From Cyclobacteriaceae bacterium (GTDB lineage: Bacteria; Bacteroidota; Bacteroidia; Cytophagales; Cyclobacteriaceae): DNA of 64,000 bases. The stretch's first letter is position 1, and the number at the start of each line of letters is the position of its first letter. The position numbers were made by a program, and so were the translations under genes. Below are positions 10,709 through 23,184 of this stretch, piece by piece. The notes beneath the pieces were generated by a model. That model worked only from the letters and a program-made list of their open reading frames with translations. It did no database searches and was not told the origin of the DNA. Where the stretch lies: positions 3,492-67,491 of the forward strand of contig JBDVMP010000018.1 in NCBI GenBank assembly GCA_039970095.1. The letters run 5' to 3'.

Positions 10709-11311
10709 TTAAACTAAGTCTTTTATTTTGTTCATAAACTCTTCGTGAAACACCCAGATAAAATCCGGAGATATATCCATTTCCATGCCTTGAAAATTTG
10801 CTTTGAAATGGATGATTGAATCAAAACCAGAGGTTTGCTTTTCCAGATATGAGTTGATATCCCGGCTGCTAATCACGTCCAGCGAAGGTACCATGCCGTA
10901 AATTTCCAATCCGAGAAAATTGGAAAACTCTGTGATCACCGCTGCGGCCATCATGTTATCCACTTCTGTGAGAAAACCCATTTTCATCATTTTACTTTCA
11001 GCGCTTTGGCTTTCTATGATGGTGGCGGGTAGGCAGGCACGGTATATTTTGTTTACCTCGTCTTCGGTGAAGATCAGGTGGCTCATTCCTTTGAGCTCTC
11101 CCATCAGGTCCGTTTTAATGAGGTGAACAGATTGCTCCGGCTCTTTTGCGAATCTGGGCAGGGCGTCTTTTATTTTATCACTGTAATCAACTTTTACCAT
11201 GGAAATGGGGCTTTGCAAAATTTGCTCCATGGACTTTTTGGCCATCGACATTCCGTCGAATACGAGCTTGGAGGCGACCTCCAGTTCGGCTTGGTTTAAT
11301 TTGTCTAGCAT
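10709..11311 (-). CDS. cheC: CheC-like phosphatase
   Basis: TEVDNMMAAA...GMVP fits E-x2-N-x22-P; located between two cheY genes. Confidence 0.8.
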   Translation of the reverse strand: MLDKLNQAELEVASKLVFDGMSMAKKSMEQILQSPISMVKVDYSDKIKDALPRFAKEPEQSVHLIKTDLMGELKGMSHLIFTEDEVNKIYRACLPATIIESQSAESKMMKMGFLTEVDNMMAAAVITEFSNFLGLEIYGMVPSLDVISSRDINSYLEKQTSGFDSIIHFKANFQGMEMDISPDFIWVFHEEFMNKIKDLV

Positions 11312-11444: not shown

Positions 11445-11807
11445 TTATTGAAGCAAAAGCGCTAATTCTTCCAACAATTGTTCCTCTGAAAAGGGCTTAA
11501 TTAAGTATGCTTTTGCGCCGAGCGACATGGCTTCTTCTATAGCTGATTGCTGCCCTACTGCACTGATCATGATTGTGCAATGTGCTATCTTCTCCTGATT
11601 CAGAATCTGGAGTATCTGGATGCCGGTCATATCAGGCAAAATATTGTCCAGCGTTATGATGTCAGGCTTGAGCAGGGATATTTTGTCCAGAGCCTCTTCT
11701 CCGGTTTTTGCTTCCCCAACCATCTCATAGCCGGCCTTTGCAATCGTGTTTTTAACGGACATCCGGGAATATGCCGAGTCATCTACAACTAATACTCGTG
11801 GCTTCAT
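11445..11807 (-). CDS. cheY: CheY response regulator
   Basis: LVVDDS, ITLDNILP, ISAVGQQ, LIKPF; ATGA overlap with cheR. Confidence 0.9.
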   Translation of the reverse strand: MKPRVLVVDDSAYSRMSVKNTIAKAGYEMVGEAKTGEEALDKISLLKPDIITLDNILPDMTGIQILQILNQEKIAHCTIMISAVGQQSAIEEAMSLGAKAYLIKPFSEEQLLEELALLLQ

Positions 11808-12667
11808 AGTTTGACTGTTTTGTGCTTACGATAAACCTTGGTTTTGATATCTTCTACTTTGAAGAGTTTCTTTCCAGCCTCAGGCATGATGTCATAATAG
11901 CCAATGATAAGGTAACCATCGGGCCGGAGGCAGTCGTATATCATCTGAAGGACTTTCATCTTGAGTTTTTCGTCGAAGTAGATCATTACATTTCTACAAA
12001 AGACAATGTCGTAACTGCCAGTAACCGGATCATGCACCAGGTTGTGCTTCTCGAACTGAACATTTTCTTTATACAAGGCCTTAATGGTGGCATGCTTGTG
12101 GTGAAAGTCGAAATAGTCTTCCAGTTTTCTTCCGGGAAAAAACTTTAGAAAGGGAGTGAGGTATTGCTTGATGACCTCCAGAGGGTAGTCTCCTTTGCGC
12201 GCCTTGTTCAGGGCCTTGGAACTCAGGTCTGATGCCGCCAATCTCGAGCTGGTGCGCATGTTTAGTTCTTCTAGAACAATGCCCATGGTATACACTTCCT
12301 CTCCGGTGGAGCACCCGGCATGCCATATGTTTAATGGCTGTTTTTGGAACGTGGGAAGGATTTCATCTCTGAGCTTGATCCAGACATCTGGGTTTCTAAA
12401 TAGCTCAGTCAGGTTGACGAGGAGGTCATCGATGGCGGCATTAAAAAAGACTGAGTCTTTGAGGATTCGGCCCCACAAATCAAGTGAAGACTCCATGCCA
12501 TGTTTCATCATGAGCCTGTTCACCCCGCGCTTGAGGGACTGTTTTTCATAGTTGGTAAAATCAAGGCCGTATCGGTTTTTGATGGCCACCATCAGGGCGG
12601 TCATCTCTTCGTCCGTTATGAGTTCGGCGGTTTTATGCATGTTGGCCAATGCCCCGGTCATCTTCAT
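11804..12667 (-). CDS. cheR: Chemotaxis methyltransferase CheR
   Basis: VNLTELFRNP, IWHAGCSTGEEVYT, DIVFCRNVMIYFD; ATGA overlap with cheA. Confidence 0.96.
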   Translation of the reverse strand: MKMTGALANMHKTAELITDEEMTALMVAIKNRYGLDFTNYEKQSLKRGVNRLMMKHGMESSLDLWGRILKDSVFFNAAIDDLLVNLTELFRNPDVWIKLRDEILPTFQKQPLNIWHAGCSTGEEVYTMGIVLEELNMRTSSRLAASDLSSKALNKARKGDYPLEVIKQYLTPFLKFFPGRKLEDYFDFHHKHATIKALYKENVQFEKHNLVHDPVTGSYDIVFCRNVMIYFDEKLKMKVLQMIYDCLRPDGYLIIGYYDIMPEAGKKLFKVEDIKTKVYRKHKTVKL

Positions 12668-14349
12668 TTGGTTCTCTGTAGTGCTTGTTTGTGTACCGTG
12701 TCAGTGAGTACAGTAATGTCGATTACAGGGCAAACTTTTCCACTACCTAGAATTGTAGCTCCACTGATGAGTTTGATGTTTTGCAATGGGGGAGCCAGGG
12801 GCTTTTCAATAATTTCTTTTTGCTGTAGAACTTTGTCAACGACAATTCCGGTGGTGCGATCGCCATAGGAAACGATGATTACATCAAAAGGCTTGTTTTC
12901 TCCTAGTTCAAAAGTTTTATGAAGAGCTCCCCGATAATGCGCATCTGAAAGCTGATCCATCTCTAAAAGATCCTGAAGAAAAACCAGAGAGACGGCCTCA
13001 CCCTGAAAGTCTGTTGTGAGTCCTGGGCCTAATTTTTGAATTTCACTTTTTTGACGCGTGATAACAGCTTCTGTATAGGAAAGAGCAATGGCGTATGTCT
13101 GATTTTTTATTTCGAAAAGCAAGGTTCCTTTCAGCGCCAAAGAAGCCGGAACGTGAAGTTCTATTCTTGTGCCTTCTCCCTTTGTTGTTTCGATTTTGAC
13201 CTGGCCACCTACAGACTCTACGGCCTTTTTCACCACATCCATTCCCACTCCACGACCGGAGATCTCGCTTACCTTGTCTGTGTTGGAAAAACCGGATGCA
13301 AATATGAACTGAATTACTTCCGAATCGGGGAGGCTTTCCCCGACCTGTTTTGACACCAGCTTGCGCGCGATGATTTTGGCTCTGATCGTTTCCACATCTA
13401 TCCCTGCCCCATCGTCTGTTACAGATATCACGACCCGATCTCTTTCATATGCTGCTGCCAACTCTACCTGACCATCGCTGTTTTTGGAGGCTTTTTTTCT
13501 TTTTTCGGGGCTCTCGATCCCGTGACTCACGGCATTGCGTATCAGGTGAACGAGGGAATCACCGATAATTTTTAGAATATTTCTGTCTATTTCAACATCA
13601 GTTCCTTTGAGGATCAGACTCACTTTTTTGTTTTCAACAGCCGAAGCATCGCGTAACACACGGTGAAACTTATTGAAAAGAAAGCCGACCTGAACCATAC
13701 GCACGTTCATGATGCTATACTGAAGGTTGGAGGAAATGCGCTTGAGCGCATCCAGCTCAGAAGTCCCTCTTCCGAGTTGCTCTGATAAACTGATGAGCCG
13801 ATCTCTTTCTATAATGAGCTGTCCCACTTCGTTCATCATTTCATCCATTTTTTTCACTGGCACCTGGATCACATCCGAAAACGAGATTTGGCTTTCAGGT
13901 TGTTCCTGCTCTGTTTCTTCCTCTGCGTGAGTAGTTTCTTCCTCTGCATTTTCATCTTTGGCGGCCAGTGCCTTTTGGAGAAAGAGTGTCAGGCTGGTTT
14001 TTATACCGAGATAACTCACTTTCTGGTCTGTTTCTAATGCTGTGACGAGGCTTTTGAGCTTATCGTTTGCACGAAATATCAGATTAAAAAGGTCAGCACC
14101 AAGCCGTATTTTTTCTTCCTGTATGGCGAGCATGACATCTTCTATAGTGTGGGATAGCTCTGCGATGGCATCAAAACCCATGCCCATGGCATTGCCCTTC
14201 ATGGTGTGGGTGATTCGGAAGATTTCTTTTATGGCCCGACTGTTTTTGTGGTCTTTTTCAAGGTCCACAAAAAGTTTGTCCAGGTGTTCCTGGTTGTCTT
14301 TTGCTTCGACAAGGAAGAGCTCTTTATATTCTGATTCTTTTGATTTCAC
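12664..14349 (-). CDS. cheA: Chemotaxis histidine kinase CheA (P1-P3-P4-P5, no P2)
   Basis: GTG start; HPt FRITHTMKGNA (His48); short acidic linker; P3 VPVKKMDEMMNEVGQL; P4 HLIRNAVSHGIE, DDGAGID, SGRGVGMDVV; C-terminal CheW domain. Confidence 0.96.
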   Translation of the reverse strand: MKSKESEYKELFLVEAKDNQEHLDKLFVDLEKDHKNSRAIKEIFRITHTMKGNAMGMGFDAIAELSHTIEDVMLAIQEEKIRLGADLFNLIFRANDKLKSLVTALETDQKVSYLGIKTSLTLFLQKALAAKDENAEEETTHAEEETEQEQPESQISFSDVIQVPVKKMDEMMNEVGQLIIERDRLISLSEQLGRGTSELDALKRISSNLQYSIMNVRMVQVGFLFNKFHRVLRDASAVENKKVSLILKGTDVEIDRNILKIIGDSLVHLIRNAVSHGIESPEKRKKASKNSDGQVELAAAYERDRVVISVTDDGAGIDVETIRAKIIARKLVSKQVGESLPDSEVIQFIFASGFSNTDKVSEISGRGVGMDVVKKAVESVGGQVKIETTKGEGTRIELHVPASLALKGTLLFEIKNQTYAIALSYTEAVITRQKSEIQKLGPGLTTDFQGEAVSLVFLQDLLEMDQLSDAHYRGALHKTFELGENKPFDVIIVSYGDRTTGIVVDKVLQQKEIIEKPLAPPLQNIKLISGATILGSGKVCPVIDITVLTDTVHKQALQRTK

Positions 14350-14351
14350 GC

Positions 14352-15377
14352 TTATAAACAGTTTACCAAATAACCTCCGATTTCGTTGATGTTTAAAACC
14401 ACGGCCGCAGCACCCTTTTCCCGGGCTATTTTTGGCATGCCATAGATGATACTCGAAGCTTCATCCTGAGCAATCGTAAGGCCGCCGGCTTCTAAAATTT
14501 TGCTGAGTCCCTTTACTCCGTCTTTGCCCATGCCCGTGAGCAACACACCTATCGCTTTTTGCCCAAATGTTAATGCTACAGACTCTAAAAGGGCGTTTAT
14601 GGAAGGGTTGTTGTATTCTTTATATTCCTGACCTGAAAAACCAATAGTATATGTTTCTCCCTTCTTTTTTATAACGGTGTTGCCTTCTCCGCTGGCAATC
14701 ACGATCATGCCTGGTTTGATAACGAGACCTTCTTTACTGACTACCACATCAAGGTTGCTGAGCGAGTTGAGGCGTCTGGCAAAAGAACGAATGAAGTTGT
14801 GAGGCATGTGCTGTCCAATAACAACGGGAACGTTTAGGTTGGCCGGAAGCGAGGTGATTATTTTTTCTATGGCTGTTGGCCCACCTGTAGATGCCCCGAT
14901 GGCGATAATGTCATATTGAGGCTGGGGCTCAAATGTGTGTGTGAGCTGATTGAGACCTGCTTCTTGTATGTGAGTTGGTTTTGGCCGGGCGCCTGCTACT
15001 TTTTTTATTCTGGCGATAAGCTGTGCCTCCATTTCCCGAATCTTGGAACCACCCTTTTTTGGTTTGTTGATATAGTCAACCGCGCCGAGCCTAAGGGCAT
15101 CAAATATTGGATCCAGGTTTGTGTTGCCGACGGAGCTCAAAATCAGGATAGGGCAAGGGCAGTGTTTCATGATTTGCTCCACGGCGTAAAGCCCATCAAA
15201 ATCGCCCATGTTCATATCGAGCAGAACCAGGTCTGGTTTCAACTGTGCTGTTTGCTTTACGGCCTCCTTGCCATCTGTCGCAGTACCGATTACCTCAATT
15301 TCGTCATCTTTTGAGAGGAGGTCTCCGAGTAGGAGCCGCATAAAAGCGGAATCATCGACTACTAGTATTTTAATCAT
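14352..15377 (-). CDS. cheB: Chemotaxis methylesterase CheB (REC + esterase)
   Basis: N-terminal REC; catalytic GASTGG, QHMP, LTGMGKDG. Confidence 0.97.
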   Translation of the reverse strand: MIKILVVDDSAFMRLLLGDLLSKDDEIEVIGTATDGKEAVKQTAQLKPDLVLLDMNMGDFDGLYAVEQIMKHCPCPILILSSVGNTNLDPIFDALRLGAVDYINKPKKGGSKIREMEAQLIARIKKVAGARPKPTHIQEAGLNQLTHTFEPQPQYDIIAIGASTGGPTAIEKIITSLPANLNVPVVIGQHMPHNFIRSFARRLNSLSNLDVVVSKEGLVIKPGMIVIASGEGNTVIKKKGETYTIGFSGQEYKEYNNPSINALLESVALTFGQKAIGVLLTGMGKDGVKGLSKILEAGGLTIAQDEASSIIYGMPKIAREKGAAAVVLNINEIGGYLVNCL

Positions 15378-15383
15378 GCGCCT

Positions 15384-16115
15384 TTATCTGGTGGTTGGCG
15401 TTTTTACCTGAGATTGCATTCGGTCGCCTTCTATAAGCTCATCAATATCTATAAAAAAGGCCATTTGCCCCTCATACCTGACCACACCTTTGATATAAGT
15501 TTCTTCACGTGGTAGTTCCGTCACGGTACCTGATGCTACTTCAATATCTGAACCATTTACGCGTATGTTTCCAGGAACTTGCGGAAGCAAGATCCCCACG
15601 GTGAATCTCTCACTGGAGACAATCATGGTATATGTATAAGCAGCGCTTGGTTTCTCTAAACCGAGTTTCTGCGCCAGGTCGATTAAAATGATGCTATTGT
15701 TTCTGATAGTGGCAATACCGGGAATGTAGTCGGGTGTCCTGGGAACGGCGGTCACCTGCGGTGTTTTTACCACTTCGTTTACCTTGTTTATTTCCACAGC
15801 AAAGTCATTTCCGGAAAGGTTAAAAACCACCAGATGGGCTTTGGTGTCTGCTAGTGATGTTATTTCTGTTCTGAACTTTTGGTGAAGGGCTTCTCTTCTC
15901 AGCACTTCATCCGGAGAAATTAAACCCTCTGTCTGAGCCTTCGTTGTTTTAGGTTTTTGGCTTTGTTTCTTTTTAGCTTTTACCGTCGCTTTTGGGGCAT
16001 GCTTTGGTTCAATTAACTTTTTGGGCGCAATTTTTTTCTTCTTCTGTATTGTGGTTTTATCCTTCACCAGAGGAGGAGCCGACTTTGTTTTTTTAAGGTT
16101 GTTTCCCAGTGCCAT
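15384..16115 (-). CDS. cheW: CheW with long Lys/Pro-rich N-terminal extension
   Basis: LVVFNLSGNDFAVEINKVNEVV, TAVPRTPDYIPGIATIRN; ~65-aa basic N-terminus starting MALGNNLKK; TAATG overlap with parA. Confidence 0.88.
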   Translation of the reverse strand: MALGNNLKKTKSAPPLVKDKTTIQKKKKIAPKKLIEPKHAPKATVKAKKKQSQKPKTTKAQTEGLISPDEVLRREALHQKFRTEITSLADTKAHLVVFNLSGNDFAVEINKVNEVVKTPQVTAVPRTPDYIPGIATIRNNSIILIDLAQKLGLEKPSAAYTYTMIVSSERFTVGILLPQVPGNIRVNGSDIEVASGTVTELPREETYIKGVVRYEGQMAFFIDIDELIEGDRMQSQVKTPTTR

Positions 16116-16861
16116 TACTTTATTGTTTTCAAAAGCTCTTTGGTGAATGATCTGTAGTCCTGTGCGCTTGATGAAGACGGGGAGTAAGTAAGCACACTTT
16201 GTCCAAAAGAGGGTGCCTCAGAAGCGCGAACATTTGTTCTGATATAATTTGAAAAAATTTTGTAGGTGTAATTTTCCCTGATGTGATCCATGATTTCATT
16301 GCTGAGCTTGCGACGTTTGTCTAGCATGACCGGCAATATCCCCAAAACTGCCAGTTTGGGGTTTGAGGTGTTACGGATTTTTTCGATGGTATCTGATATG
16401 AGATCCAGACCCTGAAGGCTGAGTACCTCCATTTGCATGGGAATGATAATTTTGTCAGCACAAGTGAGTGCATTTATAGTCATGAGTGAAAGCGACGGAG
16501 GGCAATCAATCAAAATATGATCATAATCGTTTTTGACCTCATCGAGAATTCCCTGCAGGATTGACTCGCGATTGTGCTCTTCGGCAATGGCCAGCTCCAG
16601 ATCAGCGAGTGATACATCGGAAGGGGCAATATCCAGCTCTTCGCGTGATACGATTATGTCTGTTATTGCTACTTCACCCTGGATAACCTCTGCCATGCTA
16701 CTTTCGGCATGCTGTATGCCCAAAGAATATCCCAAGCTTCCCTGAGCATCCATATCTACAAGCAAAACACGTTTTTTGGATTCACTCAGTCCTCGACCAA
16801 GGTTGATTGTCGTGGTGGTTTTTCCAGTTCCTCCTTTTTGGTTGACAATTGCTATGATCAT
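16115..16861 (-). CDS. parA: ParA/Soj-family ATPase within the che operon (ParC/PpfA-like role inferred)
   Basis: Deviant Walker A NQKGGTGKTT, LVDMDAQG, LIDCPPSL, SEAPSFG. Confidence 0.92.
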   Translation of the reverse strand: MIIAIVNQKGGTGKTTTTINLGRGLSESKKRVLLVDMDAQGSLGYSLGIQHAESSMAEVIQGEVAITDIIVSREELDIAPSDVSLADLELAIAEEHNRESILQGILDEVKNDYDHILIDCPPSLSLMTINALTCADKIIIPMQMEVLSLQGLDLISDTIEKIRNTSNPKLAVLGILPVMLDKRRKLSNEIMDHIRENYTYKIFSNYIRTNVRASEAPSFGQSVLTYSPSSSSAQDYRSFTKELLKTIK

Positions 16862-17038
16862 GAGAAAGTTTGCACCGCTTAGTTAGGTTAAACTTAAAGA
16901 GTTCTTGATTGAATTTTAAAATAAATTCGTTCAATACGCTCTGGCCATGGGTGTGCTGGCAGAAAAACGGATGATCTGGAATTTGGAATGTTGGTTGTGC
17001 CCTTTATACAGATTAAAATGAAGGTTTTTGAAATCGTT

Positions 17039-17458
17039 CTAAGACAAGACCCTCGTTTTCAATCGGCTTTGAGCGGCGATTACTTTTAGTTCTTCGGTTG
17101 TACGCATACAAAATGGGAGACTCAATAGGTCGCTAAAGTCTTCACCGCATTCCAGCATGTCTTCATCATACTCATCGTAATACCAGTTTACCCGAATCTT
17201 AGTGCCGGATTTTTCGAAGGTCTTCACCTTTTTGAGAATTTCATAAATACACTTCGCACTAGATGTATTGAACATACTGAAACACATATTTACAACCAGA
17301 TGTTTCGGCGTAGACGGACAGTTTGTGAGGTTGTCCATAATCGGTTTGTAGAAGGAAATGCTATGATCGGGAGAGGATAAACCCTTGATGTCTAAACGAC
17401 CCCTGTCCAGATCTAACCTGACTAATGGGGTTTTGTTGGTTGGTTTGATTAATAGCAT
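17039..17458 (-). CDS. SiaC-family (DUF1987) regulatory phosphoprotein
   Basis: KPTNKTP, KGLSSP, FYKPI, FNTSSAK (Thr65), VNWYYDEYDEDMLECGEDFS. Confidence 0.85.
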   Translation of the reverse strand: MLLIKPTNKTPLVRLDLDRGRLDIKGLSSPDHSISFYKPIMDNLTNCPSTPKHLVVNMCFSMFNTSSAKCIYEILKKVKTFEKSGTKIRVNWYYDEYDEDMLECGEDFSDLLSLPFCMRTTEELKVIAAQSRLKTRVLS

Positions 17459-17569
17459 ATAGGTTGAAAATATAGGTGACCATGATAAGGCTTCTTGACG
17501 CCAACTACTAGCATTATTCGTTTAAGGGACTTATCAAATCGACCAAATAGAACATAAATAGTTTTCTGG

Positions 17570-20095
17570 CTATTCCTCTATGTTGATGTGATTGGCCTCT
17601 TTGGTAATGTCTCTTGAGATACCGAATGTACCAATGATTTTGCCGTCAGTATCTTTGAGAGGCATTTTGGTGGTGGAGACAGTTTTTACTGACCCATCTG
17701 GTTGATCTACTTTCTCAACCAAATTCATTAATGGCTCGCCTGTATTGATAATTCTTTGCTCGTCTTCATAGGCTTTTTGTGCATGGTCGCTGTAGAAGTC
17801 AAAGTCGGACTTACCGATCATTTCTTCCAAGTTCTCAACGAGATGTCCGTAAGACTTGCTCACTCGGGTAAACTTGCTGTCTTTATCCTTGAAATAGATG
17901 TAGTCCGGCATATTGTTGAGAAGAGCGTCGAGATAACTTTTTTCCTTTTCGAACATCATTTGGTTCATTTTCAGGTCTGTGATGTCTCGAGATATTCCGA
18001 AGGTACCAATGATGTTTCCATCTACGTCTTTGAGAGGCATTTTAGTGGTGGACAGGTATTTAATCTCACCATTTTTGAGATCCGCTTTTTGCACGATGTT
18101 GATCAGAGGCTTATTGGTGCGGATTATTTGTTGTTCTTCTTCATAAGCTACACGAGCATGCTGTCCATGGAAGTCAAAATCAGATTTTCCTAAAATCTCA
18201 TTTTGGTGGTCCATTCCAAAACGCGTAATGTGAGATTGGCTGTTTCTGATAAACTTACTGTCTTTGTCTTTGAAGTAGATAAAATCAGGGCTGTTGTCCA
18301 GCAGAGCGTCCAGTAGGCTTTTCTCCTTTTCGTAAGCTTCGCGCATTTGAAACAGTGCGTTGTTTTGTTGGCTTTGTCCGGAGAGTCTAACCATGCTGAT
18401 CCCTTCGCTGAATTTTTCTGCCACTTCGGCCAGACTTTGGGCCTTTTCATTATAGCTGCCCATTCCGGACGACAACTCTGAAGCAGAGCTGGCCACTTCT
18501 TCTGTGCCAGCAGCGGTTTGCTCGGCAATGACCACAACACTTTCGGTGATGGTCACCACGTTGTTGATGCTGCTAATCTGGTTTTGTGCCGAAGTGAGTA
18601 TGTCTTCAGAGAAGCTTAATGTATTATTAGAAGAATTTAGAATTTCTTTGAAAGACGTTGAGGCGGTCTGAGATGTTTCTTCTCCTCCTTTGACGACCTT
18701 TTTCATTTGCTCCATTACTTTCACAGCGTCTTCAGTATCTGCATGTACACTGTTAACGAGTTTTTCAATTTCCTTTGCCGACTTTCTGGAGTCTTCGGCC
18801 AGCTTTCTTATTTCCTCTGCTACTACGGCAAAACCTCGTCCAGAATCTCCTGCTTGCGCTGCTTCAATGGCTGCATTGAGGGCTAAAAGGTTTGTTTGCG
18901 CCGCTATTTCCGTTATCACACTGAGCGCACTTGATATTTCGCTGCTTCGCTCATTTAGCACTTGCATGGAGGAGTCCGTTTTGTTACTAAACTCGGAAAT
19001 TTCCTTCATGCTGTTGACCACATTATCTATTAGGTTCATGCCGTTTTCGCTGCTTTTAGCTCCGGTTTTGGCAGCTTCATTGATGGCTTCAGACTTGATG
19101 ACCATCTTTTTGGAGTCTTCCAGAATCCTTTCCATAAGTGCGGAGGATTCATCAACTTTTGAGACTTGGTTTTGTGCTCCATTGCTCATCTGAGCAATGG
19201 CAGAAGCGATCTCATTGGTGTTGGCGTTCATCTCTTCGCCGGTTACTTTCATTTCAGTAGCAGACTCGTCGATGACCTTCACATTTTCAGAGATCTGATG
19301 AAGAAGGCCGTCAAGGTTGTCTAAAGCCAGGTTAAGGTTGGTAGCCATGGTTTTTATTTCTCCCTTAGCTTCTTCTTTGTAGCGTAGCGTTAAATCACCA
19401 GAAGACATGGCTTTTACTATTTTGTTGATTGCTGCAAATGGAGTAGCAATACTTTCAAGCAGCTGATTTACGTTTGACGAAAGTCTCAGCCATACGCCCT
19501 CTTTGCCGGATAGCCCGATACGTTCATTAAAGTGACCATCTTCCCCGGCACTTTTTACCACTTCATTGGTTTCACCCACCATCATTTTTAAGTTTTGGCG
19601 CATGCTGATCAAAGAGTTTCCGAGTAAATCGTTTTCTCCTTTGGTATGGTACTCAGTGTCAAGGTTACCTTGAGAAATATCCTGCGCGAAAGAAGCAGCC
19701 TGCTTAACAGCCTCCAACAGGCTATTCATAGCCACAGATAACAACCCGACCTCATCTTGCCGCTTGATCAAATCCTCTGGAATGTTACTTACTTCTCCAG
19801 AGGTCAGAAGGCTCACTCGTTTGGATATTCGGTGGATCGGTATGCTGAGTATGATGAAGCAATACCTGAAATATGCCGATGTAACAAGGCAGCCTAGAGG
19901 TAAAACCCAGGCTAAATGTATAAGTCCTTTTTCAGCCACAAAATATCCAAAAACGGACATCATGATAAGAAGTACGATCAGTGGCCATGACAGCTTAAAT
20001 AGTAGCGTTTTTTTGAACAATAGCCTTACCGACATGAAACTTAGCGGTGCGGCAATTAAAAGAAGGATTAGGGTAAAAATTGAAAAATCACTCAT
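17570..20095 (-). CDS. Methyl-accepting chemotaxis protein: ~3 TM, no periplasmic sensor, multiple HAMP, signalling domain, two C-terminal PAS domains
   Basis: [34 protein letters not shown]; two PAS repeats [13 protein letters not shown] / [13 protein letters not shown]...[23 protein letters not shown] after the hairpin. Confidence 0.93.
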
Positions 20096-20141
20096 TGCTG
20101 GTTGTTATTTGGGTTTGCTGGTTATGGGGTTGGAAAGTTTG

Positions 20142-20669
20142 TTAAATCATTTTTAATATATCAACTAAAAAGATCATTTGATCTTCGTGTTTGGCAATTC
20201 CGACAATGAACTCATCGTCTTCAGTTAAGTTTTGTAAGACGGAGGCAGACTTGTTGATACTGGGTTCTTCAATCATGACTGTTTTGGGCACTGTTTTAAC
20301 TAAAATTCCGGCTTGAAATTCTTCACTGTTGATTACCAGAACGAAAGCCGTGTGGTTTGGAGTTTTTGCTGGTGAAGTGGATACTCTGGATTCAGCGTCC
20401 ACGATGCTAATCACAGAGCCTCGCACATTCGTCACACCCAAAATGTAATCTTGTGTTTGGGGAATGGGAGAAATATCCGGGGCGTTTACTACTTCTTTCA
20501 CGTCATGGATGGGTGCTCCGTATTGCTGATCGCCCAGCTGGAATACCACGATGGCTTCCTTTTTTATCGTGTCCTGCGTGCCGTGAACCAGTTGGGTTTT
20601 TTCGGCATGATCAACCCAGCTTTTTCCTTCAGGTATCAATGAATTTGTATTTTGGGAAGGTTTACTCAC
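20142..20669 (-). CDS. cheW: CheW coupling protein
   Basis: GTG start; IVVFQLGDQQYG, VKEVV, ISPIPQTQDYILGVTNVRGSVI; between the two MCP genes. Confidence 0.93.
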   Translation of the reverse strand: MSKPSQNTNSLIPEGKSWVDHAEKTQLVHGTQDTIKKEAIVVFQLGDQQYGAPIHDVKEVVNAPDISPIPQTQDYILGVTNVRGSVISIVDAESRVSTSPAKTPNHTAFVLVINSEEFQAGILVKTVPKTVMIEEPSINKSASVLQNLTEDDEFIVGIAKHEDQMIFLVDILKMI

Positions 20670-20676
20670 GTAAGTT

Positions 20677-23184
20677 TTAACTTAATCTAAACTTGCTTAT
20701 TCTCTCATTCAAACCTACTGCGACCTGAGATAGGTCTGCTGTCTTCTCATTGTAGTTGTCCATACCGGCCGAAAGCTCGGTGGCAGAACTTGCAATTTCC
20801 TCAGTGCCCGCAGCAGTTTGCTCAGCTATTACCACCACAGATTCGGTGATGGTCACTACGTGTTTGATAGCATCTATTTGCTGGAGCACATGGTTTCTGA
20901 TTTCGTCTGATACGTTGAGATTGGCATTGGCCGACTCATATATTTCGTTGAATGCATCCGAAGCATGTTTTGTGGCATCCTCCCCACTTTGTACACTGGC
21001 CTTCATCATTTCTATGGCTGTACTGGCACTGGATACATCCTTCTTCACGTCCAGAATAAGCTTTTCTATTTCTTTCGCCGATTTGCGAGAGTCCTCGGCC
21101 AGCTTGCGAATTTCCTCAGCCACCACTGCAAAGCCACGTCCTGCATCCCCAGCCTGGGCGGCTTCTATGGCGGCATTGAGTGCCAGTAAGTTTGTTTGAG
21201 CTGCAATTTCGGTTATGACCGAAAGGACACTGGAGATCTCATTCGAACGATCCGTTAGGACCTGAATGGAGTTGTAAGTTTCGCCCGAAAAAGCAGAAAT
21301 ATCACGCATGCTAAACCCTGCCTTTTTTACCAACTTCAGCCCTTTGTCGCTGTTGTCGGAGACCTCCTGGGCTACACTTTTGATTTTATCGGCCTGATCT
21401 CCCATCTTGTTTGAGGACCTGAGGATTCCTTCTACCAGGTTGGAAGACTCATCTACTTTTGTCACCTGATTTTGTGCTCCACGGCTCATTTCTGAAATAG
21501 AAGAGGCAATTTCACGGGTGTTGAGAGTCATCTCTTCATTTACACCGAGCATTTCCACAGCAGAATCAGCCACACGCTTGGATCCTGCCAAAATTCCCTT
21601 GATCAGGTCGCTGATGTTATCAAGGGCGGAATTTAGGTTGTTGGAGAGTACCTGTATATCTCCTTGTACATTGCTGCTAAACCTTACGGTGAGGTCCCCA
21701 TCAGCCATGGCGTTTACCACATGGTTTATTTCTTTGAATGGGTTTGCCAGAGAGTCGAGAAGCGAGTTTATCGAATCGCTAAGCTCTTTCCACGCACCAT
21801 TTTCCCAGTCAGTCTCAATCCGCGCGGTGCTTAGTTCGCCGGATTCTCCTGCTCTTTTCACCACAGTGTTGGTTTCACTGATAACTGTCTCCAGGTTTTC
21901 GCGCATGCGCAAAAGTGCATACCCCAGCATATCCCGATCGCTCGATACTTCAAAAGATTCTGACAGGTTGCCTAGACCAATCTGATGTGCAAAGTTTGAC
22001 TTATATATCAACTGATCCATTAGGTGATTTGCGGAAGTTGCCAGCTGACCGATTTCGTCTGAGGACTTGAAGTCCAGCCTGTTTTCCACATCTAAATCTC
22101 CCGTTGACAGCCGTTGTAGCATTTCGCTTGATTGATCCAATGATCTGGCGATGGAGGTAGCAATTTTGTAGGTAATGATAATGAGTATTATCAGCCCGAT
22201 CAGTCCCACAGCAATAGTTGCAAAGAATGTTCTGGCGATGGGGCCGGTTATTTCCTTGATGGGGATTTCCAAACCGGCAGACCATGGGGATTTCGAATAT
22301 CCAATTTCTATAGGAGCAAAAGCGATCATCACCTCTTCCTTGCCAAAACCAGCGTTATTTGCAGTAAAAGACGTTGTTTCTCCGTTAGCGATGATTGACT
22401 TTAAGTCAAAACCCAGACTTTGATAAAACGGCAATGAATCCAATGGCTGGTTGGCATATTTAAGGTTTTCGTGGGTAATTACGGTTCCTTTGTTTGAAAC
22501 AAGGAAAGCAAAGCCTCTATCGAAAAAGTCTATCTCAGACATTGATTCAAAGTCATCCAAAAACATGTCTGTTCCGATCAGTCCGGCAAATTTTCCATCT
22601 AGCATGATGGGGGCTTCCGGAGAAACACCCAGCAACAATTCGTCTGATTTTCCTCCATAGGCAGCAAATTTGTAGGGCTCGCCAATGATTTCTTGCGGGT
22701 TTTGTTTGATGTAGGAATACAGCCCCGTTTCAGGGTCGCCGTTCAGGTTATCCAGACGAATGTGCTCCTGAACATCACCATCATCGAGGTAATAGGTGGC
22801 CCTTTCACGACCGAAGGGTTTGTCCCACTCCGGGTCTATGGACCAGAGCTCGTAACTCATCCAGGCGGCCTCATATTTGGGGTTTGATTTGAGGGCGCCA
22901 ATCATGATTTGTTTTCTAACTTCAGTTCTTTGGTCTGCGGGAAGAGAAAGCGCGGCTTCCATGGCTGTGGCCATAGACCGAGTCACGGCAATGTCTTCAC
23001 TCAAAATCCTGGAGATTTCATTTGCCTTCTGGCTTGCAGCTGTATTTACCAGCTTCCACCCCTCTTCTATCGCCTGATTTCGCAGGCTCAGTGTGATATA
23101 GCCCAGCGTAAACACGTACGTCAGTATCATGGTGCCTATGATAAACACCATCATTTTTTTTCGAATGCTAAAATTCAAGTTCAT
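20677..23184 (-). CDS. Methyl-accepting chemotaxis protein with periplasmic dCache domain and multiple HAMP
   Basis: TM1, ~290-aa periplasmic region ([26 protein letters not shown]), TM2, HAMPs, [29 protein letters not shown]. Confidence 0.94.

Follow-up and report, generated by a model that had tools for sequence, protein, structure and literature searches.

How can a signal enter a chemoreceptor whose sensor-type domains lie behind the hairpin that controls the kinase? The question is raised by a gene located at positions 17570..20095 (minus strand) of a stretch of 64,000 nucleotides, hereafter the window, from the genome of a Cyclobacteriaceae bacterium (assembly GCA_039970095.1, contig JBDVMP010000018.1, positions 3,492 to 67,491). 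The gene, a single open reading frame (ORF) from ATG to stop, encodes a real, conserved, membrane-anchored chemoreceptor of 841 amino acids that belongs to the 44-heptad (44H) class and carries two Per-Arnt-Sim (PAS) domains after its kinase-control (MA) hairpin. Signal entry into chemoreceptors is understood almost wholly from the N-terminal side, i.e., from the periplasmic domain through the second transmembrane helix (TM2) and the HAMP domain to the first methylation helix (MH1).

Layout and integrity of the receptor gene

The protein begins with a three-helix membrane anchor (residues 1-85; 19841..20095, minus strand), delimited by Kyte-Doolittle peaks and by the helices of the AlphaFold2 (AF2) model. 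Its transmembrane (TM) helices span residues ~2-27, ~31-56, and ~58-85, the third running into the first HAMP unit (AF2 helix 58-98). Since the loops between them have only 2-4 residues according to both hydropathy and AF2, a periplasmic domain is absent from the receptor. The anchor is followed by four HAMP units (residues 86-263; 19307..19840, minus strand; Pfam HAMP/HAMP_2 and AF2), which are concatenated as a poly-HAMP array, the second amphipathic helix (AS2) of each being continuous with the first (AS1) of the next. The AF2 helix pattern of this region is 58-98/115-141/157-184/201-231/246-, and in the orthologue P0028 Pfam recognises a HAMP at 86-130.

The MA hairpin (residues 264-572; 18380..19306, minus strand), defined by MCPsignal and AF2, has its tip at AGD417SGRGF. 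The C-terminal arm, counted from the tip to S572, is 155 residues or 22.1 heptads long, and the mirror-image start of the N-terminal arm falls at 262, matching the end of HAMP4. Because each arm has 22 heptads and the N-arm starts where HAMP4 ends, the hairpin was assigned to the 44-heptad class. AF2 predicts both arms as single unbroken helices (246-414 and 416-567). One methylation site is predicted from the sequence at 528 (consensus [ASTG][ASTG]xx[EQ][EQ]xx[ASTG][ASTG]), and it is shared with the partner receptor MCP1 encoded in the same operon.

After the hairpin come a conserved linker and the start of the N-cap helix of PAS1 (MREAYEKEK; residues 573-590; 18326..18379, minus strand; AF2 and conservation), PAS1 itself (residues 591-712; 17960..18325, minus strand; Pfam PAS_9/PAS_4 at 603-707, AF2 PAS fold), and a last segment (residues 713-841; 17573..17959, minus strand; Pfam PAS_4 at 726-833, AF2, phmmer) that holds PAS2 and a 12-residue end and is joined to PAS1 by a helical linker (706-728). 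Pfam matches were obtained for HAMP_2/HAMP (199-261), MCPsignal (340-518; E 1e-40), and PAS_4/PAS_9 (603-707 and 726-833; E 1e-34), each scoring well over its curated cut-off. The protein fits the profile of the methyl-accepting chemotaxis protein (MCP) family with 139.6 bits (MCPsignal, PF00015; cut-off 34.6) and the PAS_4 profile (PF08448), over two stretches, with 119.3 bits (cut-off 23.1). PAS1 and PAS2 share 63% identity. The receptor ends 12 residues past the 'DIT' motif of PAS2 with the letters INIEE, and inspection of this end did not reveal an aromatic C-terminal CheR/CheB pentapeptide.

An AF2 model of the tail alone (residues 561-841) reached a predicted local distance difference test score (pLDDT) of 89.6 and a predicted template modelling score (pTM) of 0.66. 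From its disordered start, a long N-cap helix leads to PAS1, which a connecting helix of 23 residues joins to PAS2, and each PAS unit has the strand and helix order of the PAS fold. The full-length model, built on an alignment of 66 homologues, has a mean pLDDT of 80 and a pTM of 0.32, so that the placement of the PAS pair relative to HAMP4 is not readable from this monomer.

The junction between hairpin and tail is present in every assembly that was compared. Logan contigs of the sequencing runs X1 (156x) and X2 (313x) match the window without a single difference over 17300-20300, and an 80-kb contig from a run of a different study (X5, 2015) differs from it by 14 substitutions and 0 indels. 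Twelve of these 14 substitutions lie inside the receptor gene, only 2 are non-synonymous (I44V, R781K), and none creates a stop; three independent assemblies carry the receptor gene without indels. The ratio of non-synonymous to synonymous changes (pN/pS) against the closest orthologue is 0.22 for the TM anchor, 0.11 for the HAMPs, 0.047 for MA, 0.023 for the linker, 0.050 for PAS1, and 0.137 for PAS2. The anchor is the part of the receptor under the weakest constraint and, judged by these ratios, the linker and PAS1 are constrained as strongly as the signalling domain. In addition, six positions (N578, M584, E586, E589, E591, and K592) are either invariant among the 66 homologues or conserved in at least 90% of them. 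The purifying selection on the linker, PAS1, and PAS2, together with these conserved linker and N-cap residues, argues that the tail is functional.

These data bear out most of what an earlier note, made from the sequence of the window without database searches, had read in the gene. It had described about three TM helices without a periplasmic sensor, and two homologous PAS repeats that end the protein after MA, a layout inverted relative to Aer and Aer2; its interval for the repeats, about 17570-18335, corresponds to residues ~587-841 and fits the PAS1 and PAS2 limits given above. The mis-assembly that it had considered found no echo in X1, X2, or X5, where neither a stop nor a frameshift separates MA from PAS.

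Distribution and evolution of the layout

A whole-protein search returned ~85 clusters (90% identity) of MCPs with PAS_4, which come from Marinoscillum, Reichenbachiella (faecimaris, agariperforans, carrageenanivorans, sp. 5M10), and related metagenome-assembled genomes (MAGs) and are publicly annotated as 'MCP with Pas/Pac sensor'. Every one of them has extra sequence after the 22-heptad C-arm, and in 4 representatives the order was confirmed by Pfam coordinates. Tails of 150-190 residues hold one PAS, those of 270-310 two, and those of more than 400 three. At the N-terminus there is either a TM anchor alone (tip at ~415) or an anchor with a periplasmic dCache domain (tip at ~678; ~1000-1130 amino acids in total). 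At least five full-length orthologues have the same junction, among them those of a Cyclobacteriaceae MAG (91% identity), Marinoscillum sp. MHG1-6, and M. furvescens DSM 4134. On this sequence evidence, the PAS-tailed layout is the norm for the receptors of Marinoscillum and Reichenbachiella.

The layout becomes scarce in wider samples. Within the same family of the Genome Taxonomy Database (GTDB), which was sampled with 121 genera, an MA C-arm and a PAS occur in one frame in only 4 genomes, and this type of MCP in only ~7. In a sample of 401 genomes of the phylum, the combination was found, among the matches listed, only in the genome of the window, and the C-arm had no match in the 400 other genomes, again among the matches listed; the PAS subfamily by itself occurs in 109. 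Judged from these counts, a che system of this type is a rare, lineage-restricted trait. Beyond the lineage, a length-restricted search for the fusion gave only fragments from the same family, and wider searches were swamped by multi-PAS proteins. Three distant candidates (L016, L019, L047) were rejected because they have no MA domain, their apparent C-arm being a Gln/Glu-rich coiled coil or the pre-PAS part of a multi-PAS kinase. The search results also contain a group of giant MCPs from Hymenobacter spp. (P0220-P0235), of ~1450 amino acids with the tip near residue 1180, which carry several unusual Pfam domains at the N-terminus and, at the C-terminus, an extension of ~115 residues that is not a PAS.

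The gene for MCP1 (20677..23184, minus strand) encodes a dCache domain, four HAMPs, and a 44H MA hairpin without a tail. MCP1 shares 59% identity with the receptor across the MA domain and stops ('…FRLS') exactly at the equivalent of S572, where the receptor continues into the linker and the two PAS domains. The whole four-HAMP array, including the HAMP2-like module, is also found in MCP1. A tree of the MA core (a quick IQ-TREE maximum-likelihood run, with support from the Shimodaira-Hasegawa-like approximate likelihood-ratio test, SH-aLRT, only) groups the receptor, with good support, with TM-only receptors that have two or three PAS domains, and places the tail-less MCP1 inside a Reichenbachiella clade of dCache-MA-PAS-PAS proteins (SH-aLRT 98, on a long branch). 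This placement suggests that MCP1 has lost a PAS tail. Two further tail-less proteins, P0205 and P0209 (M. luteum and Marinoscillum sp. 108), have 610 amino acids and the same TM/four-HAMP/MA layout. They end with KLSGQ…NQEKESVLLDSLV (starting as KLSGQHH…) and then an acidic tail, i.e., the linker and an apparent remnant of the PAS N-cap, with no PAS core.

Because MCP1 nests among tailed receptors and tail-less MCPs keep the linker and an apparent N-cap remnant, the sequences suggest that a tail was already present in the ancestor of this receptor family and that losses and changes in copy number followed, with the reservation that the homologue search was seeded with a tailed query and favours tailed proteins in the list. 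The idea that the tail is a general replacement for a lost periplasmic sensor was rejected, since receptors with dCache, MA, and PAS-PAS are common and MCP1 nests among them.

What the tail may do

We lean, if modestly, towards the interpretation that the receptor is functional and methylatable and that its only recognisable sensory module, the cytoplasmic tandem PAS attached to the end of the second methylation helix (MH2), acts as an input. In the receptor dimer, the two tails would pair via their N-cap helices into a PAS dimer which, because the 44H hairpin returns to its starting level, would lie beside HAMP4 and the top of the methylation-helix (MH) bundle. A cytoplasmic small molecule would bind there and change the quaternary structure of the PAS domains, and the cofactor chemistry would not be that of light-oxygen-voltage (LOV) domains, of the Aer/NifL flavin, or of the FixL haem. 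The change might then pass through the short conserved linker and the N-cap to the packing of MH2, and hence to the control of CheA, and it might also, or instead, pass by lateral contact with HAMP4 and the MH cap, as in Aer. HAMP4 would work on MH1 in the usual manner, and in the dCache-bearing relatives the tail would be a second, intracellular input.

There are precedents for the steps of this scheme. In TlpD, changes in the binding site of the CZB domain are coupled to the kinase interface over more than 140 Å (PMC12871147). The PilZ domain of Tlp1 and the hemerythrin domain of DcrH are C-terminal inputs (PMC13401364), and in Aer, HAMP and the MH cap are the lateral targets of the PAS, MH2 being affected most (PMC13232288).

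The model of the tail is also consistent with an input role, its fold and tandem geometry matching those of the input modules of NifL, MmoS, FixL, and DosP. Foldseek gave these as the closest structures (NifL, 9qq6; MmoS, 3ewk; FixL PAS-A/B, 8js5; DosP), with TM-scores of 0.56-0.63, 11-16% identity, and a probability of 1.00 against tandem-PAS structures. By sequence (phmmer), the only relatives with solved structures were VqmA (6IDE, 6UGL, 6KJU; E 1e-8) and one other sensor-protein PAS. The same PAS subfamily occupies input positions in thousands of kinases, RsbU phosphatases, and GGDEF proteins. We have compared 106 MCP-attached members of this subfamily with 431 other members (537 domains). 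Both groups have in common the core motifs PD·IYFKD, GK·DFDF, A…E, TK·P, and G··GISRDIT, and the core residues K609, D610, K637, D639, D641, E654, and K685 are all kept in the tail, which we read as the probable retention of a conserved pocket. The conservation specific to MCP-attached copies lies chiefly in the N-cap (EKEK·LLDALL), plus R617, S619, S621, and N666. A Trp at column 680 (PAS1 numbering) is present in 87% of the non-MCP members and in 12% of the MCP-attached copies, and its loss hints at a changed pocket or interface.

Several observations weigh against an input function. Firstly, AF2 predicts a break at 568-578 (pLDDT <50 at 574-582) followed by a helix at 579-601, and since this low-confidence break separates MH2 from the N-cap, the monomer model does not predict a signal path along a rigid helix. 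Secondly, the tail sequence points to no particular ligand or cofactor. A sequence check found neither Cys nor Trp in the two PAS domains, nor did either contain the LOV motif GxNCRFLQ with its flavin-adduct Cys, i.e., the tail is not a LOV photosensor. There is no invariant His either, the best column (646) having 72% in the MCP-attached copies and 46% elsewhere. Together, these absences make LOV-type, Aer/NifL-type flavin, and FixL/Aer2-type haem chemistry all unlikely for the tail. Thirdly, PAS domains usually signal via their C-terminal helix, and nothing follows PAS2. Fourthly, close relatives have anything from 0 to 3 PAS domains, and forms without a tail have survived, so that the tail would be dispensable for a working receptor core. 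Finally, a group of output-less proteins with the order dCache-HAMP-GAF-PAS-PAS ends in a homologous PAS pair, which can therefore be a terminal, possibly an output, element.

The same output-less proteins, and the want of a cofactor signature, also speak for the main alternative, which we hold as a tentative possibility: the tail would serve as a surface for docking or assembly that recruits a partner, such as a ParA-like protein, a CheW with a Lys-rich arm, a SiaC-like protein, or neighbouring receptors, and so organises, localises, or branches the output of the array. The partners named here are encoded around the receptor. The receptor lies in a complete che operon, whose remainder (11445..20669, minus strand; Pfam) encodes, in order, CheW, the receptor, the SiaC-like protein, the ParA-like protein, the Lys-rich-arm CheW, CheB, CheA, CheR, and CheY. 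With CheA and two CheW-domain genes in the operon, control of CheA by the receptor through CheW is predicted. In the genomes of three relatives (L001, L002, L004), this synteny is kept apart from the SiaC-like gene, the order being MCP1, CheW, receptor, ParA-like, Lys-rich-arm CheW, CheB, CheA, CheR, CheY, a 200-amino-acid protein, CheY, NIT-kinase, receiver, and CheX. Orthologues in such operons occur in Marinoscillum, among them that of the cultured M. furvescens DSM 4134.

The ParA-like gene and the gene of the basic-arm CheW adjoin the receptor in all these orthologous operons, which favours docking. So does a passage in PMC13001251 that gives the C-terminus of TlpD as required for polar localisation, and so does the fact that the MCP-specific conservation is found mostly in the N-cap and a few PAS positions, with Trp680 of the subfamily lost. 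On the other side, the core residues of the wider subfamily, all retained and read as a kept pocket, and the modelled fold and tandem geometry would fit an input module better than a docking surface. The SiaC-like (DUF1987) gene, at 17039-17458 (minus strand) directly downstream of the receptor, was rejected as the source of a conserved tail partner: it was found only in the window genome and in the near-identical L001, and the Marinoscillum operons (L002, L004) retain the tail without it.

The operon offers some further observations. The receptor of L002 and L004 bears a divergent third PAS-like module that ends in a conserved 'YPE(I/L)··DI' motif. At 15384-16861 (minus strand) of the window lie the genes of the ParA-like ATPase and of the CheW, whose N-terminal arm is Lys/Pro-rich and has ~90 residues; both are kept in 3/3 orthologous operons and are a candidate array-positioning pair. 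The 200-amino-acid protein, encoded at 10709-11311 (minus strand) between two CheY genes, is 72-98% conserved in the orthologous operons and had no Pfam match at E <= 0.001.

A bolder form of the input interpretation sees the receptor as in effect a circularly permuted Aer. The PAS pair would dock laterally on HAMP4 and the MH cap and feed in an intracellular metabolic or energy signal, so that the MH bundle would be controlled from both ends of the polypeptide, by HAMP on MH1 and by PAS on MH2. We consider this specific version rather unlikely. If it were true, these gliding Bacteroidota would as a standard combine cues from outside and inside the cell by such a two-input design, because the tail appears to be ancestral to the whole family, including its dCache-bearing members.

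It is quite improbable that the tail is an adaptation or autoregulatory element, which would gate the access of CheR and CheB or bias the on/off equilibrium constitutively in place of a pentapeptide tether. The tail, at the end of MH2 and next to the methylation site at 528, takes the place in which other MCPs have pentapeptide tethers, the receptor has no pentapeptide while CheR and CheB are encoded in the operon, and pentapeptides can come after C-terminal domains (PMC7390727). However, MCP1 of the same operon has neither tail nor pentapeptide, the biology of PAS domains gives no hint of CheR or CheB binding, and a two-domain module of 270 amino acids would be large for a tether. The chance that the fusion is an artefact, i.e., a mis-assembly or a missed stop or frameshift joining an MCP gene to a separate PAS gene, is practically nil: the suspicion, for which no support was found, was raised only because the source genome is in 108 contigs, and it is rejected by the agreeing contigs at 156x and 313x and the independent 80-kb contig, by the same junction in orthologues from isolate genomes (M. 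furvescens DSM 4134, Marinoscillum sp. MHG1-6, Reichenbachiella spp.), by the syntenic operons, and by the strong purifying selection on the MA-PAS junction.

An input at the end of MH2, as we favour, would be of interest because the CZB, PilZ, and hemerythrin add-ons have shown that the other end of the hairpin is usable and none of them is a PAS, the commonest cytoplasmic sensor fold. In cultured species (Marinoscillum furvescens and Reichenbachiella spp.), the family offers a natural series of receptors that have 0, 1, 2, or 3 PAS domains and may or may not have a dCache, and this series could reveal how a PAS drives the kinase-control bundle via its N-terminal side. For one lineage of Bacteroidota the family represents the default design of a receptor, and it could show what a chemosensory pathway senses and controls in a non-flagellated glider. 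The marine host is taken to be such an organism because GldM was found and FliG was not found in its genome (5.19 Mb, 98.5% complete). The only full receptors of this genome are the PAS-tailed receptor and MCP1. A mini MCP-like protein is encoded outside the window on contig C71 (2410-3456, minus strand). It is soluble and consists of a coiled coil, a PAS_3 (153-239), and the tip half of MCPsignal (250-334), a domain order opposite to that of the tailed receptor; its ORF reaches the end of the contig. The practical value is modest, namely a design principle for engineered receptors and a correction of the assumption that PAS always precedes MA.

Comparison with known systems

The receptor has a sensor-type domain after MCPsignal in one polypeptide and belongs to the category of chemoreceptors with a C-terminal ligand-binding domain (LBD). 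According to Ortega & Krell (2020), Pfam holds at least 17 kinds of LBD placed C-terminal to the signalling domain, and their Supp. Fig. 2 lists PAS_3 among them (PMC7390727). The statement of the earlier note that receptors usually end at the methylation helix or a pentapeptide needs this qualification, since C-terminal sensor domains (CZB, PilZ, hemerythrin, PAS) were already a known category (PMC7390727). The category is known and PAS is catalogued in it; the layout is without a study in the literature searched. The earlier note had also asked itself whether the architecture might prove common and already characterised. It is common in its lineage and catalogued, but no characterised receptor with a PAS after MA was found in that literature. 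Neither was any C-terminal add-on receptor studied in Bacteroidota, and on the chemotaxis of Reichenbachiella or of gliding Bacteroidota the literature searched held nothing relevant beyond the Pfam listing (PMC7390727). In a 2026 review of aerotaxis receptors, the PAS domains described are all N-terminal or located between HAMPs (PMC13401364).

The nearest studied cases are TlpD of H. pylori (CZB), Tlp1/Aer of A. brasilense (PilZ), and DcrH of D. vulgaris (hemerythrin), which have a globular domain after the MA C-arm as the receptor has. DcrH is also alike in being membrane-bound and in its HAMP-MA-domain order. In these cases, the C-terminal domain is an input that modulates kinase control (PMC12871147, PMC13401364, PMC7390727), and the tail described here may likewise bind a signal and modulate the kinase output. 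It is a tandem PAS where they have a helical bundle, a β-barrel, or a di-iron bundle, and its joint is a predicted break plus an N-cap helix instead of a continuous coiled coil.

The output-less Bacteroidota proteins with the order dCache-HAMP-GAF-coiled-coil-PAS-PAS (L016, L019, P0003, P0007) have in common with the receptor a HAMP2-type module ('FAxEIxxxxFD…LGNALIDMRESL') and the same PAS subfamily ('PD·IYFKD…GK·DFDF…TK·P…GISRDIT'), which is again terminal. P0003 and P0007 are 48-50% identical to the receptor over the PAS pair. They differ in having no MA hairpin, with a GAF and a coiled coil in place of HAMP3-4 and MA. The earlier note had remarked on a likeness to output-less HAMP-GAF-PAS sensors, in the PAS repeats and in a quoted linker, which is HAMP2, and both are indeed shared with these four proteins. 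Because of this sharing, a chimaeric origin of the receptor appears plausible. The linker fails as the mark of a chimaera, the same module being present in the ordinary neighbour MCP1. As for the proposal of a lineage-specific chimaera, the fusion is lineage-specific, but it is not a one-off, as the ~85 clusters demonstrate.

VqmA, the PAS-LuxR regulator of V. cholerae, has a single PAS followed by a DNA-binding domain, and this PAS binds the autoinducer 3,5-dimethylpyrazin-2-ol (DPO). By sequence it is the solved structure nearest to PAS2, which matches it over 110 residues (E 1e-8) and has in common with it the motifs KD, G[KR]xDF, and TKxP…G…DxT. F67, F99, and K101 of VqmA contact DPO. Of these, only K101 aligns with a conserved residue, the invariant K of 'TTKxP', and F67 and F99 align with D/E and T.

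Aer2 of P. aeruginosa and Vibrio resembles the receptor in its concatenated HAMPs and cytoplasmic PAS and in the absence of a periplasmic domain. The PAS of Aer2 is inserted between HAMP3 and HAMP4; it passes its signal via the C-terminal helix to HAMP4-5 and uses a His to bind haem (PMC13401364). With its PAS after MA and no invariant His, the receptor does not belong to the Aer2 family. Aer of E. coli shares with it the membrane anchor, the lack of a periplasmic domain, and a cytoplasmic PAS, and a PAS at the end of a 44H MH2 would be in the same neighbourhood as that of Aer. Aer differs in its N-terminal PAS with flavin adenine dinucleotide (FAD), its F1 linker, its TM hairpin, its single HAMP, and its 36-heptad class; the receptor has a C-terminal PAS pair, four HAMPs, three TM helices, a 44H hairpin, a methylation site, and CheR and CheB. 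These differences, and the absence of Trp and Cys from its PAS domains, place it outside the Aer family and make an Aer/NifL-type FAD pocket unlikely. By analogy, the receptor may nevertheless work like Aer, by lateral PAS input, though it is not a member of that family.

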